DNA of 64,000 nucleotides from an uncultured Chitinophaga sp. (GCA_964473035.1 CAYYMK010000009.1:1450-65449); one strand, 5' to 3'; shown: positions 27,801 to 32,375, counted from the first letter of the stretch. Notes: a model not told the origin generated them from the letters alone. A program made the numbers and translations.

Positions 27801-28157
27801 GTGCAAACGGCCTACCTGGAGCAAAAAGACCCACTGGTCATATATAAAATGGAAGCGTACAACCTGTTCCGGAATATGACCGCAGAATTCAATAAAGACA
27901 TTGTATCGTTTTTGTGCCATTCATTTATACCCATTCAACAGGATACTGCCCCACTGAAGGAAGGACGACAGCAAAAAACTGACATGAGCCGTATGCGGGC
28001 CAATAAAGAAGAAGTAGATGCTGCAGGAGAGGATTATGCTGCCAACGAAAAAGACAAACTGGTGCCGGTAACGGCAGCACCAAAGATTGGTAGAAATGAA
28101 CCCTGCCCCTGTGGTTCCGGGAAAAAATACAAGCAATGTCACGGCCGTGATGCATAA
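24861..28157 (+). CDS. secA: preprotein translocase ATPase SecA
   Basis: 1098 aa with Walker A MATGEGKT and DEAD-like [22 protein letters not shown]-terminal zinc finger [14 protein letters not shown]. Confidence 0.97.
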
Positions 28158-28238: not shown

Positions 28239-28937
28239 TCAGGCCTGATCTTTTTTCTTACGGTAAATGCAGTTTGACATTTCGCACACATGACAAGAAT
28301 AGTCTGTCCGCTTTACCTGACGGCCAATACCAATGATGCCGCTTACCGATTTTACCGGCTGCATGAGTGAACAGTCCGTAAGCGAGACTCCGCAAAATTT
28401 TTCAGGTAAAAGGGAAAATAGTTGTTGCTGCTCACTGACATGCCATCCGCAATAACCAGGGCTGTACCGGTTGGTGATGTGCAAGCCCTCCTGTTTAACC
28501 CTTTCCTCAAGCTGATCCTGTACCAGGTCCATTGCAGTTTCCACAATTTCAGAGCCCACGGCATCCAGGATATACGCTTCAGGCAAATCGCCCAACTTCA
28601 ACCGCATTTCAGCAAGGCTGCTGATGCCCGGACCGGCGGTGCAGCAGAAGAGTGCCACCGATTCTGCCTTGCGAAACTGGCTGCCGATTATTTTCTTTAC
28701 CTGCATCTCTGTATCACTCACACAAATTGTTTCATACCCTTTGTACACCGAAAATGCATTGATAAGGCGGTAGCCGCCTTTCACCGGCCCCAGCGTTTTG
28801 GATGTGTGCAACGCTTCTTCTATCATCTCACACACTGGAGCAGGCGCATGCCCCTTCGGGTATCCGATGAACTGCTCAATATCTGCAAGCTGCAGGCCAA
28901 GTTCATCAACAGAGAAAATGAATTCCTGTATTTCCAT
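28239..28937 (-). CDS. stand-alone methionine-synthase (MetH) reactivation/AdoMet-binding domain protein
   Basis: 232 aa. IEQFIGYPKG, ILDAVGSEIVE, NRYSPGYCGW and MQPVKSVSGIIGIG match the Met_synt_B12 activation-domain pattern. Confidence 0.75.
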   Translation of the reverse strand: MEIQEFIFSVDELGLQLADIEQFIGYPKGHAPAPVCEMIEEALHTSKTLGPVKGGYRLINAFSVYKGYETICVSDTEMQVKKIIGSQFRKAESVALFCCTAGPGISSLAEMRLKLGDLPEAYILDAVGSEIVETAMDLVQDQLEERVKQEGLHITNRYSPGYCGWHVSEQQQLFSLLPEKFCGVSLTDCSLMQPVKSVSGIIGIGRQVKRTDYSCHVCEMSNCIYRKKKDQA

Positions 28938-28940
28938 GTT

Positions 28941-29840
28941 CTATTCCTCAGTCGGATTTGCCCTTATTATATCAGCCATTTTACGGATATGCTCCGGCCC
29001 TGTGCCGCAACAACCTCCTATAATACCGGCGCCGGAAAATATCAATTCCTGAACATGAGCCGACATTTCTTCCGGCGTATCAGTGAACACCGTTTTCCCC
29101 CCTATGTATTGCGGCATACCGGCATTAGCATGCACTATAATTGGAATATGCGGGTTGACCTGCCTTATTTTTTTTACGACTCCTGTCATCTCTTTAATAC
29201 CCTGACCACAATTGGCGCCAACTGCATCGGCCCCGGCTGCAATTAATTTTTTTGTCATTTCTTCGGGAGATACACCCATGATGCTGTGATAGTCATGCCC
29301 GCTGGTGCGGTCAAATGTCATCGTACAAAAGACTTCACAACGGGTATTTTCTTTAGCAGCTCTTACCGCAAGCACTGCCTCTCCGATATCAGTCATGGTT
29401 TCTACAAGGAGTGCATCAGCGCCTCCCGACTGCAAGGCCAGTGCCTGCTCCCGGAAAGCCTCATAAAGCTCTTCTGCTGTTATCTCCTCCATCAGCAGCA
29501 TCTTCCCCGAAGGTCCGATAGATCCTAAAACATAAGCTGAATCAGCTGCTGCCTTTGCAGAAATGGATGCAGCAACACGATTCAGCTCAGTTACTTTTTC
29601 TGCAAGCCCGTAATCGTCCAGTTTATACCTGCTGGCCCCAAAGCTGTTCGTCTTTACCAGTTGCGCCCCTGCTTCCAAATAACTATGTGCAATAGACAAA
29701 ACCTCATCAGGATGAGTCAGGTTCCAAAGTTCCGGACATTCGCCGGGTGCTAATCCCCTTTGATGCAGTTGCGTACCCCAGGCCCCGTCGGACACAAGAA
29801 TTTTTCCTCTTTTCAGGATCTGAACGATTCCCATTTTCAT
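28941..29840 (-). CDS. homocysteine S-methyltransferase domain protein
   Basis: ILVSDGAWGTQL, then VKTNSFG. Zinc-ligand cysteines are present in GANCG and GGCCGTGPEHI. Confidence 0.85.
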   Translation of the reverse strand: MKMGIVQILKRGKILVSDGAWGTQLHQRGLAPGECPELWNLTHPDEVLSIAHSYLEAGAQLVKTNSFGASRYKLDDYGLAEKVTELNRVAASISAKAAADSAYVLGSIGPSGKMLLMEEITAEELYEAFREQALALQSGGADALLVETMTDIGEAVLAVRAAKENTRCEVFCTMTFDRTSGHDYHSIMGVSPEEMTKKLIAAGADAVGANCGQGIKEMTGVVKKIRQVNPHIPIIVHANAGMPQYIGGKTVFTDTPEEMSAHVQELIFSGAGIIGGCCGTGPEHIRKMADIIRANPTEE

Positions 29841-30520
29841 GGTGCCGTTTTTTTTGTAAGTACATCATTGAGATAATGGACAGCTTGTTGTGGGTTTGCG
29901 GCATAAAAATCAGCGCCAATCTGCTGTGCAAAATGAGCATTAAGAGGGGCGCCGCCCACAAGTATTTTCAGGTGATTGAATTCTTGCCGCAGGTCTCTTA
30001 CCGTTTGCTCCATATTTGCCATCGTAGTAGTGAGCAGGGCCGAAAGACCTATGCTGCATCCCGGATGCTGCTGAATAGCGTCCTTGAATTTTTCAGTCTT
30101 TACATCCTTTCCCAGGTTCAATACTTCCCACCCGTTGCCGGCAATAATCATGGCAGCCAGGTTTTTCCCAATTTCATGCAGGTCGCCGCAAACCGTACCA
30201 ATGATAAATGTTCCTTTTCGTTGTACTTCGCCGGATTCAAAAAAAGGACGCAGGTGCTCCATGGCGGTATTCATTGCTTTGGCCGACATCAGCATCTGTG
30301 GTACAAAAATCTGGTGTGCCGAAAATTTTTTTCCAACGATTTCCATTCCCCTGATAAAACCTTTCTGAAGAATATCTTCCGGCGAAATACCCTGTTGCAG
30401 TGCCAAACGGGTCAATTCATCTGCACCGGGCTGCCCTTTCAGGTGTGGGGGATAAGTCGCTGCCTGGGTTACTTTGCCAAATTCAATACAGGCAGCTATT
30501 TGTTCCAGAATTGCTTCCAT
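29837..30520 (-). CDS. corrinoid (B12-binding) protein
   Basis: An N-terminal helical cap followed by a Rossmann B12 domain. The domain has DxHxxG (GDLHEIG), SxL (SALLTTT) and GG (ILVGGAP) motifs. The stop overlaps the next start (ATGA at 29837-29840). Confidence 0.85.
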   Translation of the reverse strand: MEAILEQIAACIEFGKVTQAATYPPHLKGQPGADELTRLALQQGISPEDILQKGFIRGMEIVGKKFSAHQIFVPQMLMSAKAMNTAMEHLRPFFESGEVQRKGTFIIGTVCGDLHEIGKNLAAMIIAGNGWEVLNLGKDVKTEKFKDAIQQHPGCSIGLSALLTTTMANMEQTVRDLRQEFNHLKILVGGAPLNAHFAQQIGADFYAANPQQAVHYLNDVLTKKTAP

Positions 30521-30553
30521 ATCAATTTAGGGTTGAGGCATTCGGGTTTCATC

Positions 30554-31744
30554 CTATCGGGAATACCTTCCGTATTTTTCTGCAAGTTGGAACAATTTTT
30601 CTATTTGCTCCGGTTTGGTATGTGGCGATACAGAACAGGCAGTACTCAGAATATAGCCGCCACCGGGCATAGCGGTGGTCAGCCGTTTACATACAGACTG
30701 CTCCAGCATGTCATCGTCTCCCTTCAGCAATTCATTGACTGCATCAAGGTTTCCTTTGATAAATACTTTTCCCTTGGTTTGAGCAATAGCCTCTTCCAGC
30801 TCCACCGTGCCTAAAGGCGGCGGATCGAGGGTATCTATTCCATTAGTTCCGGTTTCCATCATCAGATCCAGCCTGTCGCCTATCCCGCCACAAGTGTGCG
30901 TATAGACAGGAATACTGGTCGCTGTTTTGATACCGCTGATTACTTTTTTTTCATACGGCAAAACAAACTGTTCGTAAAATTCTCTTGAAATAAAACCGCT
31001 TCCGGCAAATGCAGAAGAAATCAGCACTGCATCAGCGCCACAGGCAGCTTCTGAAATACCCAGCCGTATGGCACCGTCCGACAGGGCATCAAGGCAGGCA
31101 GCAGATTTTTCCGGCTCGGTCAACAGGGCCATCAGGGCCGGTTCATAATTCAGCAATTCAAGAAATTGCGAAAACGGACTGTATATTTCTCCATGAACAG
31201 AAACTTCTCCCTTTGTTTTTTGAATCACTTTCTTCAGTGTGTCGTTGATCGTGTCAGGAAAAAAATGATTTTTATCCGGAAGCTTGTCTTCAAAATCCCA
31301 TTTATACGGCCAGCTGTAACCAGTAATTTGCCATGGGTCGGCATAAAATAGATCGTCCGGATTTATATCATCAAGCGATGGGAAAAACCTGCTGCCGTCT
31401 GCCTGATAATAATGGGGATTATCATCGGGTGGAAAAATGGTGAATCCGCCGGTTTTCCAGTTAATTTTTTTTTCGCTGTTGATGGTTTCAATACTGCTGA
31501 TATAGCTGCGCCAGTTTTCTGGCCGTCCATGCAGATTTACAAGGATCCCATCAAAATGATAGCGTTGCTGCATTCGCACCAGTGCATCAGAAAAACCATC
31601 GGAACTGTACCAGACGTCTATCGGGTCTATGCCGCTGTGCAGAAAATAGTGGCCAAGGGAAAGCTGGCACATCACCGGTACCCTGTCCGGCACACCACAA
31701 CTCATAGCAATAAACATTCTTTCCTTGCTGGTCATACCCTGCAA
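30554..31744 (-). CDS. URO-D-family (MtaA/MtbA/MtsA-like) corrinoid methyltransferase
   Basis: 396 aa. N-terminus TSKERMFIAMSCGVPDRVPV is typical of the family. The zinc motif HxC is present in YTHTCGG, with a downstream Cys in STACSVS. Confidence 0.8.
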   Translation of the reverse strand: MQGMTSKERMFIAMSCGVPDRVPVMCQLSLGHYFLHSGIDPIDVWYSSDGFSDALVRMQQRYHFDGILVNLHGRPENWRSYISSIETINSEKKINWKTGGFTIFPPDDNPHYYQADGSRFFPSLDDINPDDLFYADPWQITGYSWPYKWDFEDKLPDKNHFFPDTINDTLKKVIQKTKGEVSVHGEIYSPFSQFLELLNYEPALMALLTEPEKSAACLDALSDGAIRLGISEAACGADAVLISSAFAGSGFISREFYEQFVLPYEKKVISGIKTATSIPVYTHTCGGIGDRLDLMMETGTNGIDTLDPPPLGTVELEEAIAQTKGKVFIKGNLDAVNELLKGDDDMLEQSVCKRLTTAMPGGGYILSTACSVSPHTKPEQIEKLFQLAEKYGRYSR

Positions 31745-31933
31745 TGATACACAGATTTTTTAGCGATTTATTCAAAATAGCCTGCGCCGCCGCCTTCCTC
31801 CGATTTGCGGGAAATTGCCGTTTTTTTATATTTTACAGCATTACAAAAGGCAAGACATCAAACAATTATCCTTTTTTTCAGAAACGTAAAAAATACTGTG
31901 GACAATACGATACAAGTTGTCATAAAAAAAACA

Positions 31934-31941
31934 TAGGTTTG
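31934..31941 (+). promoter_or_regulatory. -7 promoter box TAGGTTTG
   Basis: Exact TAnnTTTG match, 33 nt upstream of the ATG at 31974. Confidence 0.35.
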
Positions 31942-31973
31942 CGCTTTATTTATTTAACCAAAAAAACCAAAAA

Positions 31974-32375
31974 ATGAAAAAGCTACTCGCCTTACTGGCA
32001 CTTGCAGGTGTTCTGGTTTCATGCGGCAACAAGAAAAAAGATAATCCAACGCCGACTGATGACACAACGACAACCACCACCACAACCACACCAACAGAAA
32101 CTCCGACCACAACAACTACAACTTCTGTTCCTAAGTTTTCTGATCCTGATGTGCAAAAATTTGCGGATGATTATGCTGCATTTATTACCAGCTACAAAGC
32201 TGGCATGGGAGATCCTGCCAAAGCAGTGGAACTTGCTAAATCTGCCGAAGAGTGGTCAAAAAAATCTACTGAAATCGCAATGAAACTGGCTACAAATCCC
32301 GAAGAAGCAAAAGCTTTTTCTGAGTGGATTTTAGCTCTCGCAAATGAGATGATGCCAGCCGCAGTGACTCAGTAA
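31974..32375 (+). CDS. small lipoprotein with poly-Thr linker
   Basis: Lipobox LVSCG, a linker DDTTTTTTTTTPTETPTTTTTTS, then a helical ~80-aa domain. Confidence 0.7.
   Translation: MKKLLALLALAGVLVSCGNKKKDNPTPTDDTTTTTTTTTPTETPTTTTTTSVPKFSDPDVQKFADDYAAFITSYKAGMGDPAKAVELAKSAEEWSKKSTEIAMKLATNPEEAKAFSEWILALANEMMPAAVTQ

Follow-up and report, generated by a model that had tools for sequence, protein, structure and literature searches.

Corrinoid-dependent methyl transfer is known to be divided among a first methyltransferase (MT1), a corrinoid protein, a second methyltransferase (MT2) and an activator. In the roseobacter R. pomeroyi, the corrinoid protein MtgC is common to glycine betaine demethylation and to methionine synthesis by the homocysteine methyltransferase MtgE (PMC12478193), and in P. 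inhibens the pterin subunit of the split methionine synthase MetH is encoded far from the other split-MetH genes (PMC5764234). MtpA, a member of the UroD family, transfers the methyl group of methylmercaptopropionate to cob(I)alamin, a reaction that has to be pulled by a second methyltransferase (10.1101/548461). A His-Cys-Cys site is the mark of S/Se-methyltransferases of the UroD superfamily, the O-demethylases having lost the Cys ligands, and for the type 1 mlp clusters with such enzymes demethylation of methyl-sulfur or methyl-selenium compounds, possibly feeding methionine, has been proposed (PMC10418091). Here, an operon is described which joins a UroD-fold protein to a corrinoid protein, a homocysteine methyltransferase and an activation protein of the MetH type. 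It is located at positions 28239 to 31744 of a 64,000-nt stretch of DNA, called the window in the following, from an uncultured Chitinophaga sp. (GCA_964473035.1, CAYYMK010000009.1:1450-65449). This combination of modules, the UroD subfamily and the breadth of its distribution are new. Full-text literature searches gave no cassette of UroD, corrinoid protein, PF02574 and PF02965, so that an earlier note on the window, which had called the combination uncharacterised, is borne out.

The four genes of the operon are listed from the upstream end.

30554..31744, minus strand: UroD-fold methyltransferase with a predicted zinc site, proposed donor-side MT1 (PF01208, fold model, His-Cys-Cys triad)
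29837..30520, minus strand: corrinoid (B12) carrier with cap and Rossmann domains (PF02607 and PF02310)
28941..29840, minus strand: stand-alone homocysteine S-methyltransferase barrel of the MetH type, proposed acceptor-side MT2 (PF02574)
28239..28937, minus strand: stand-alone activation protein of the MetH/TM0269 type, predicted to bind S-adenosylmethionine (AdoMet) (PF02965)

These open reading frames (ORFs) are present at the coordinates given in the earlier note, and the same genes with the same Pfam domains are contained in L081, a public gene call made independently on this DNA. The junctions are likewise as described before: 33 nt between 30554 and 30520, a 4-nt overlap, ATGA, at 29837-29840, and 3 nt, AAC, between 28941 and 28937. 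The Pfam families expected from the sequence were all obtained (PF01208, PF02607 with PF02310, PF02574, PF02965), PF00809 was detected in none of the four proteins, and every motif quoted earlier is found in the translations. Since the pterin-binding module PF00809 is missing from all four, they do not make up a full-length MetH with its five modules (TIGR02082). The UroD gene probably begins with the ATG at 31735 (393 aa) and not with the TTG at 31744 used by the ORF lister: the TTG is just the first codon at which translation could start, and the homologs all start at MTSKERM, which corresponds to the ATG.

Gene content and its conservation suggest an assignment as MT1, corrinoid protein and MT2 with an activator. 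With a slight preference only, we lean towards a four-component corrinoid relay, in which the UroD enzyme loads an S- or Se-methyl group onto the carrier and the homocysteine barrel yields methionine. The UroD enzyme would transfer the methyl group of a small thioether, or of another S/Se-methyl compound, to the Co(I) form of the corrinoid protein, while its zinc would hold the departing thiolate: X-CH3 + Co(I) -> X(-) + CH3-Co(III). The PF02574 barrel would complete the transfer, CH3-Co(III) + Zn-homocysteine thiolate -> methionine + Co(I), and the TM0269-like protein would be needed for occasional repair, Co(II) + e(-) + AdoMet -> CH3-Co(III). The net reaction would be R-S-CH3 + homocysteine -> R-SH + methionine, without a folate-binding module in the operon. 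Domain identities, catalytic motifs, conserved gene linkage and exchangeable modules are established by the analysis, whereas the place of the UroD enzyme on the donor side, the donor class and the flux direction are inferred.

The match of the UroD protein to PF01208 (121.8 bits, cut-off 23.9) covers residues 164-391 only. An AlphaFold2 model (14 homologs; pLDDT 78, pTM 0.85) contains a complete UroD barrel, including the part outside the Pfam match. The Pfam score and the full-length alignment of the model to MtaA and HemE structures, with target-normalised TM-scores (TMt) of 0.67-0.78, place the protein in the UroD superfamily. The best target-normalised match is MtaA (4ay7, TMt 0.78), HemE reaches about 0.7, and sequence identity to MtaA (4ay7/4ay8) is just 14-16%. 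The model has a beta-rich insertion of about 95 residues, roughly 70-165, in which conserved aromatic residues and prolines are abundant. The motifs YTHTCGG and STACSVS are located at residues 281-287 and 367-373, and the predicted zinc ligands are H283 (30896-30898), C285 (30890-30892) and C370 (30635-30637). In the alignment, H283 and C285 correspond to the HxC of MtaA and C370 to its other Cys. Among 184 sequences of the subfamily, H283 and C285 are each present in 184 and C370 in 183, and 82 positions are conserved to at least 98%. By this His-Cys-Cys sphere the protein fits the UroD-family corrinoid S/Se-methyltransferases, and zinc binding is predicted.

Placement relative to the named UroD families (MtaA, MtbA, MtsA, MtpA, CmuA, OdmB) was judged by NCBIfam scores and fold matches as a proxy. 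The protein is not HemE: TIGR01464 gave 55.2 bits with a cut-off of 302.95, restricted to residues 201-388, and the zinc triad is kept. The MtaA/CmuA-type models TIGR01463 (99.5, cut-off 235.4) and PRK06252 (103.5, cut-off 244) and the equivalog models for MtbA (85.6, cut-off 600) and MtaA (64, cut-off 400) were also missed. Nor does it qualify as an Mlp of the type 1 clusters, since its identity to MtaA is below the more than 25% needed, a single UroD gene is present and the window contains no RACo. In the public records sampled, members of the subfamily go under unspecific labels only, for example 'uroporphyrinogen decarboxylase family protein'. With its strong conservation at 82 positions and nothing beyond generic naming, the subfamily is a well-defined target for biochemical study.

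The nature of the triad bears on the donor. The earlier note had proposed a methylthio or a methoxy compound. The first fits the His-Cys-Cys site and the second is disfavoured by the rule that O-demethylases lose the Cys ligands (PMC10418091). By analogy, a donor of S- or Se-methyl groups is more likely under this rule than one of O-methyl groups; methyl halides may be a further donor class of the UroD enzyme.

The corrinoid protein matches PF02607 (66.1 bits) and PF02310 (71.1 bits). Its cap and Rossmann domains carry the motifs of methyltransferase-cognate corrinoid proteins: DxHxxG in GDLHEIG, residues 112-118 (30167-30187), SxL in SALL, 160-163 (30032-30043), and GG in VGGAP, 188-192 (29945-29959). 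DxHxxG is kept in all 25 neighbouring corrinoid homologs. The best relatives in the PDB are 1y80 and methylamine corrinoid proteins, and the B12 domain of MetH ranks behind them. No named donor-specific subfamily can be assigned, because TIGR02370 gave 161.7 with a cut-off of 215.3. The homocysteine barrel (PF02574, 245.3 bits) has its predicted Zn(Cys)3 ligands in GANCG, residues 208-212 (29205-29219), and GGCCG, 275-279 (29004-29018), the latter being retained in 27 of 29 neighbouring homologs. With these three Cys ligands and PDB scores of 160-177 bits to the homocysteine domains of MetH (8g3h 177, 1q7m 160), as against 71-78 for BHMT and 45 for MmuM/5dml, it is a homocysteine-binding module of the MetH type.

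The activation protein scored 38.9 bits with PF02965 (cut-off 25). Its RxxxGY motif for AdoMet lies within RYSPGYCGW, residues 157-165 (28443-28469). The sole sequence match in the PDB is 1j6r, the separate MetH reactivation protein TM0269 of Thermotoga, whose RISPGY aligns to RYSPGY. An AlphaFold2 model (pLDDT 90) superimposes on 1j6r with a TMt of 0.87 and a root mean square deviation of 2.6 A, followed by the activation domains of MetH from E. coli, Thermus and human. By sequence and model it is thus a protein of the TM0269 type with predicted AdoMet binding. Four cysteines are invariant among 25 activator homologs, C163 inside SPGYCGW and C215, C218 and C223, which form a subfamily-specific C-terminal motif C215-x2-C218-x4-C223 (CxxCxxxxC; 28269-28295). 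In the alignment, TM0269 has G in place of C163 and stops short of CxxCxxxxC, and in the metal-free model the C-terminal tail is disordered or of low confidence. The form with four cysteines is that of Bacteroidota and Blastocatellaceae. In the locus sample described below, it occurs in clusters without RACo, with the exception of L011, which has a CxxCxxxC variant together with RACo. A shorter form without the Cys motif adjoins RACo in four of its five loci. The CxxCxxxxC-type site may bind a metal or an Fe-S cluster and take part in the reductive step.

At E <= 1e-5, 4953 database proteins were related to the UroD protein, the top 120 of them being 57-100% identical. The subfamily is carried by at least 565 GTDB species genomes, one genome per species having been scanned, and is spread over more than ten phyla. 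For analysis of gene neighbourhoods, the best 80 UroD-anchored loci were taken with 7 kb on either side of the UroD gene. Nearly all are from metagenome-assembled genomes (MAGs), and the cluster members bearing an organism name, such as Haliscomenobacter, are MAGs throughout. They belong to Bacteroidota, Ignavibacteriota, KSB1, Calditrichota, Gemmatimonadota, Acidobacteriota, Planctomycetota, Fidelibacterota, Sumerlaeota, Nitrospirota and Syntrophomonadaceae, and to one gammaproteobacterium. Conservation between phyla is highest for the UroD protein (54-72% identity), followed by the corrinoid protein (39-49%), the homocysteine methyltransferase (34-48%) and the activator (25-38%).

The co-occurrence of the four genes in relatives, on which the earlier note depended, was found: six of the 80 loci (L001-L004, L009, L052), from Chitinophagaceae, Haliscomenobacter/Saprospiraceae and Blastocatellaceae, show the identical order. 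A stand-alone homocysteine methyltransferase of about 300 aa was detected within 7 kb of UroD in 40 loci, a corrinoid protein in 35, a RACo-type ATP-dependent activase, recognised through PF14574, PF17651 and Fer2, in 20, and a PF02965 activation protein in 15. A match to sodium:solute symporters (SSF) was present in 23 loci, and another 23 had no recognised partner in this range. The four-gene arrangement is not due to chance and the linkage is real, because a gene present in one or two copies is estimated to lie by chance within 14 kb of another in well below 1% of genomes. A simple alternation of AdoMet activation protein and RACo was ruled out, since six loci carry both. A fusion of UroD and homocysteine methyltransferase in L051 proved to be an artefact of the ORF caller, a stop codon following the UroD ORF, and other 'long' homocysteine methyltransferase ORFs are start-codon extensions in high-GC sequences.

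Two further neighbours were noted in this sample. An AMP-nucleosidase-type protein (PNP_UDP_1; PRK07115, 386 bits) follows the homocysteine methyltransferase in L010 (11635-12408), L015 (4862-5635) and L017 (11664-12437), where the order is UroD, RACo, activator, homocysteine methyltransferase and no corrinoid gene is present within 7 kb. As the gene sets of these three loci are near-identical, the AMP nucleosidase was treated as lineage synteny. In seven loci, mostly of Ignavibacteria and related Bacteroidota MAGs, a thioredoxin-tetratricopeptide repeat protein (270 aa) is encoded directly downstream of the cluster, for example in L038 (9833-10645), L055 (9112-9921) and L053, here downstream of UroD. 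It may reflect thiol chemistry or mere lineage synteny.

Among 20 full-length SSF ORFs at UroD loci, 17 share at least 40% identity with the reference and belong to one subfamily, whose members from Gemmatimonadota, Terriglobales and Fidelibacterota have 43-47% identity to one another. Its classification yielded generic SSF, PutP and PanF-level matches only, every one below the cut-off. The presence of an importer next to the cluster implies that a donor substrate is taken up. Together with the layout of L011 (see below) and the precedent of MtpA, the importer subfamily that travels with UroD points to a place of the UroD enzyme on the donor side.

The opposite polarity was also considered. 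The UroD protein would then be an MtaA-like acceptor-side methylase of a thiol (or selenol or sulfide), and the cassette would methylate this thiol with a methyl group from methionine, through a homocysteine barrel running backward, or from AdoMet, through the activation protein. Such a function would suit a protein whose closest solved structure, MtaA, is a methyl-corrinoid:thiol methyltransferase, and a His-Cys-Cys zinc site is suited to activation of a thiolate. The assay of ClMlp2 ran in this direction as well, from methylcobalamin to selenide (PMC10418091). The dedicated importer at many loci argues for uptake, however, and neither exporter nor thiol-biosynthesis genes are conserved near the UroD loci. 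In addition, AdoMet is the usual cellular methyl source for thiols, and L011 couples the UroD subfamily with a pterin methyltransferase and a methylenetetrahydrofolate reductase (MTHFR)-like protein in a catabolic methyl-harvesting layout. Reversed polarity is therefore regarded as quite improbable, even though thioether/thiol exchange is, by our thermodynamic estimate, near equilibrium.

L011 (5801-13721), from a MAG named 'uncultured Maribacter sp.', contains a UroD protein of the subfamily of the window (61% identity) and a second UroD paralog. The same cluster encodes one corrinoid protein, the MTHFR-like protein with DUF5981, a PF00809 pterin methyltransferase, RACo and an activation protein. 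By its gene content it is a folate-directed version with the classical methyl-harvesting layout, the pterin enzyme being the predicted MT2. It follows from this content that the UroD enzyme is not itself the folate module and that the acceptor module is swappable. This locus is the single one of the 80 with PF00809 adjacent.

L011 also bears on another idea. By analogy to MetE, a protein of the same superfamily that binds methyl-tetrahydrofolate, the UroD barrel could be a cryptic module for methyl-folate or another pterin, and the four genes would then amount to an entire methionine synthase dependent on folate. MetE structures are indeed among the fold matches of the UroD model, and a UroD-family protein has been raised as a possible unrecognised tetrahydrofolate methyltransferase (PMC10418091). 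MtaA and HemE, however, match far better than MetE, for which the query-normalised TM-scores (TMq) are about 0.45-0.49, and the His/Cys zinc site in MetE and MtaA binds the thiol, not folate. An importer would make no sense for an intracellular folate, and in L011 the UroD subfamily occurs with a genuine PF00809 methyltransferase and a single corrinoid protein. A cryptic folate module thus appears highly improbable.

The neighbourhood was also analysed from the side of the activator, whose subfamily comprises 4548 proteins at E <= 1e-3. In Cytophagales-like genomes, a trio of corrinoid protein, homocysteine methyltransferase and activator occupies a syntenic position beside moaE/thiS, its members being orthologs of those of the window (58-59%, 57-62% and 47-49% identity, respectively). 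The genes beside this trio vary. In L082 and L087 they specify a GntR-type regulator, three UroD paralogs and a CobW zinc-chaperone-like GTPase, in L089 (3053-8711) and L090 (957-8717) one UroD paralog of 419-422 aa and a PhyH-family dioxygenase, with an additional AP_endonuc_2 protein (sugar isomerase/epimerase-like) in L089 and a GntR/LacI-type regulator in L090. The set of L089 and L090 suggests another methyl donor, possibly sugar- or inositol-like. L085 has the trio with no donor gene nearby, and L086 contains only homocysteine methyltransferase and activator. The UroD proteins at these loci are not orthologous to that of the window, identity being at most 24%, and PF00809 was not detected in the eight activator-anchored loci.

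The occurrence of the trio beside varied UroD paralogs indicates a conserved acceptor, carrier and repair unit that takes donor-specific UroD enzymes; from its gene content it appears to be a general acceptor unit for different UroD paralogs. The statement of the earlier note that the folate barrel is 'replaced' by the UroD protein was accordingly too strong, the UroD gene behaving as an exchangeable add-on to a conserved trio.

Some details of these loci are added here. In L082 (541-8714) the order is a regulator with GntR and Peripla_BP_3 domains, UroD (421 aa), UroD (334 aa), corrinoid protein, a UroD-thioredoxin fusion (539 aa), homocysteine methyltransferase, CobW GTPase and activation protein, and the arrangement is also present in L083, L084 and L087. 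The third Cys ligand is apparently missing from the 421-aa paralog of the L082 type. In L088 (3408-6178), an IS1595-family transposase (PF12762) lies inside the UroD-thioredoxin fusion, leaving a UroD ORF of 464 aa and a thioredoxin ORF of 75 aa.

Several points weigh against the proposed relay. In the 23 UroD-anchored loci without a recognised partner, no further neighbour recurs, so that the UroD enzyme need not always work with the trio. The trio alone in L085 and the pair in L086 show that the donor is encoded elsewhere in some genomes. Such a donor could be a pterin protein, which would make the trio an ordinary split MetH, and a pterin module could act in trans, leaving the folate independence of the relay conditional. 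MtaA, the closest structural relative, acts on the acceptor side in methanogens, and thioether/thiol exchange is estimated to be close to isoenergetic. Transfer from a thioether to Co(I) is thermodynamically unfavourable (10.1101/548461). From the unfavourable Co(I) step and the near-isoenergetic exchange it follows that the net direction is set by metabolite pools.

One alternative is an ordinary split MetH with an accessory donor. The trio would be the housekeeping B12-dependent methionine synthase, its pterin subunit being encoded elsewhere as in Phaeobacter and Ruegeria, and the UroD enzyme would provide a second methyl entry onto the common corrinoid protein, as MtgB does for glycine betaine. 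This explanation overlaps with the proposed relay, folate independence being the sole difference. It is in line with the trio and the pair standing alone in L085 and L086, with the unlinked pterin subunit of P. inhibens (PMC5764234), with the double use of MtgC in glycine betaine demethylation and methionine synthesis (PMC12478193), and with L011, where a pterin methyltransferase is shown to be possible in the same type of cluster. On the other hand, PF00809 is adjacent in one of the 80 UroD-anchored and none of the eight activator-anchored loci, while UroD donors are often adjacent. The corrinoid protein is nearer to methylotrophic corrinoid proteins than to the B12 domain of MetH. A SAM or cobalamin riboswitch was found neither in the window nor in 20 related loci, which is weak evidence against a housekeeping role. 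An ordinary split MetH is therefore considered rather unlikely.

Returning to the relay with the UroD enzyme as MT1, a broader picture can be drawn, which is tentative and less likely than not. The UroD subfamily would represent an unrecognised and very widespread route in more than ten phyla, among them many probably aerobic or facultative bacteria of soil, freshwater and sludge. The SSF symporter would import a methylthio compound, candidates being 3-methylthiopropionate, S-methylcysteine or a methylthio-sugar, and the methyl group would pass to homocysteine via B12, bypassing folate and AdoMet. In Bacteroidota, the four-Cys activator would serve as a self-contained metal- or Fe-S-containing reactivator in the place of RACo.

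The operon is bordered by convergent secA on one side and by a divergent small gene on the other. Two non-coding features were recorded at its ends.

31745..31973, minus strand: upstream non-coding stretch common with the divergent gene, presumed promoter; no riboswitch found
28059..28083, minus strand: terminator-like hairpin with T-run, possible operon terminator; consensus scan only

In the window, no match to an Rfam family attained the gathering score, and a permissive scan of 31600-32100 gave chance-level matches to small RNAs only. The hairpin is located within the 3' end of secA, 156 nt past the last gene of the operon, and its assignment as a terminator is weak, because such sites in the region are not clearly above shuffled expectation. 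In the protein of the divergent ORF (31974-32375, plus strand, 133 aa), the N-terminus resembles that of lipoproteins and a long tract is rich in Thr and Pro; no Pfam family was assigned to it in L081. The 64-kb window contains one UroD gene, and no second homocysteine methyltransferase and no corrinoid or B12-domain paralog were found in it. Ten other large ORFs of the window were scanned, none of which could be tied to methionine, folate or B12.

If the proposed relay holds true, many environmental bacteria can dispense with methyl-folate and form methionine with the methyl group of a scavenged donor, and genome-based prediction of methionine auxotrophy and B12 dependence would change. In soils, sludge and waters, methylated compounds of sulfur (or selenium) would have one more sink. 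The principle known from MtgBCDE, split methionine synthases as hubs common to several methyl donors, would be extended.

Comparison of the cassette with known systems reveals a mixture of shared and distinct properties. With MetH of E. coli, Thermus and human it shares the Zn(Cys)3 homocysteine barrel, the cap and Rossmann B12 module with DxHxxG, SxL and GG, and the activation fold with RxxxGY, and with TM0268/TM0269 of Thermotoga the activation module as a separate protein (1j6r). Unlike in both, all modules are separate polypeptides here, the PF00809 barrel is missing and a UroD-fold enzyme with a predicted zinc site is added. Unlike TM0269, the activation protein of the operon has four invariant cysteines. 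The split MetH/MtgBCDE system of roseobacters (P. inhibens, R. pomeroyi; PMC5764234, PMC12478193) also has a stand-alone homocysteine methyltransferase and corrinoid protein. Its non-folate donor module uses the common corrinoid protein, and it works in aerobes. It differs in that the donor enzyme MtgB belongs to the MttB superfamily and acts on glycine betaine, that the pterin subunit MtgD is essential, and that reactivation involves a RamA-like protein and DUF1638 and no PF02965 protein. In the operon, there is a UroD-fold enzyme as the proposed donor module, a PF02965 activator and no pterin gene.

MtaA, MtbA, MtsA, MtpA and CmuA resemble the UroD protein and its partner in the UroD barrel, the HxC...C zinc site and the cap and Rossmann corrinoid protein, and MtpA is a precedent for a donor role from thioether to Co(I) (10.1101/548461). 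The protein of the window is set apart from these enzymes by its insertion of about 95 residues and by scores below the NCBIfam cut-offs. The final acceptor would be homocysteine, via the PF02574 enzyme, and not coenzyme M or tetrahydrofolate. The type 1 mlp clusters (PMC10418091) likewise combine UroD-family His-Cys-Cys enzymes with a corrinoid protein and an activase and lack a tetrahydrofolate methyltransferase. They contain a RACE activase and two or three Mlps whose identity to coenzyme M methyltransferases exceeds 25%, and are confined to obligate anaerobes, whereas the cassette occurs in Chitinophagaceae and Saprospiraceae, lineages assumed to be aerobic. Compared by description, no PF02574 or PF02965 component is part of the type 1 mlp clusters in PMC10418091, while the cassette has one divergent UroD enzyme and an explicit homocysteine methyltransferase. 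Finally, the core-MetE proteins MesA-D also methylate homocysteine from a methyl-corrinoid protein without methyl-folate. Their homocysteine-binding catalyst is of the MetE type (PMC7857596), whereas here it is of the MetH type (PF02574), and the UroD enzyme would specify the donor side.

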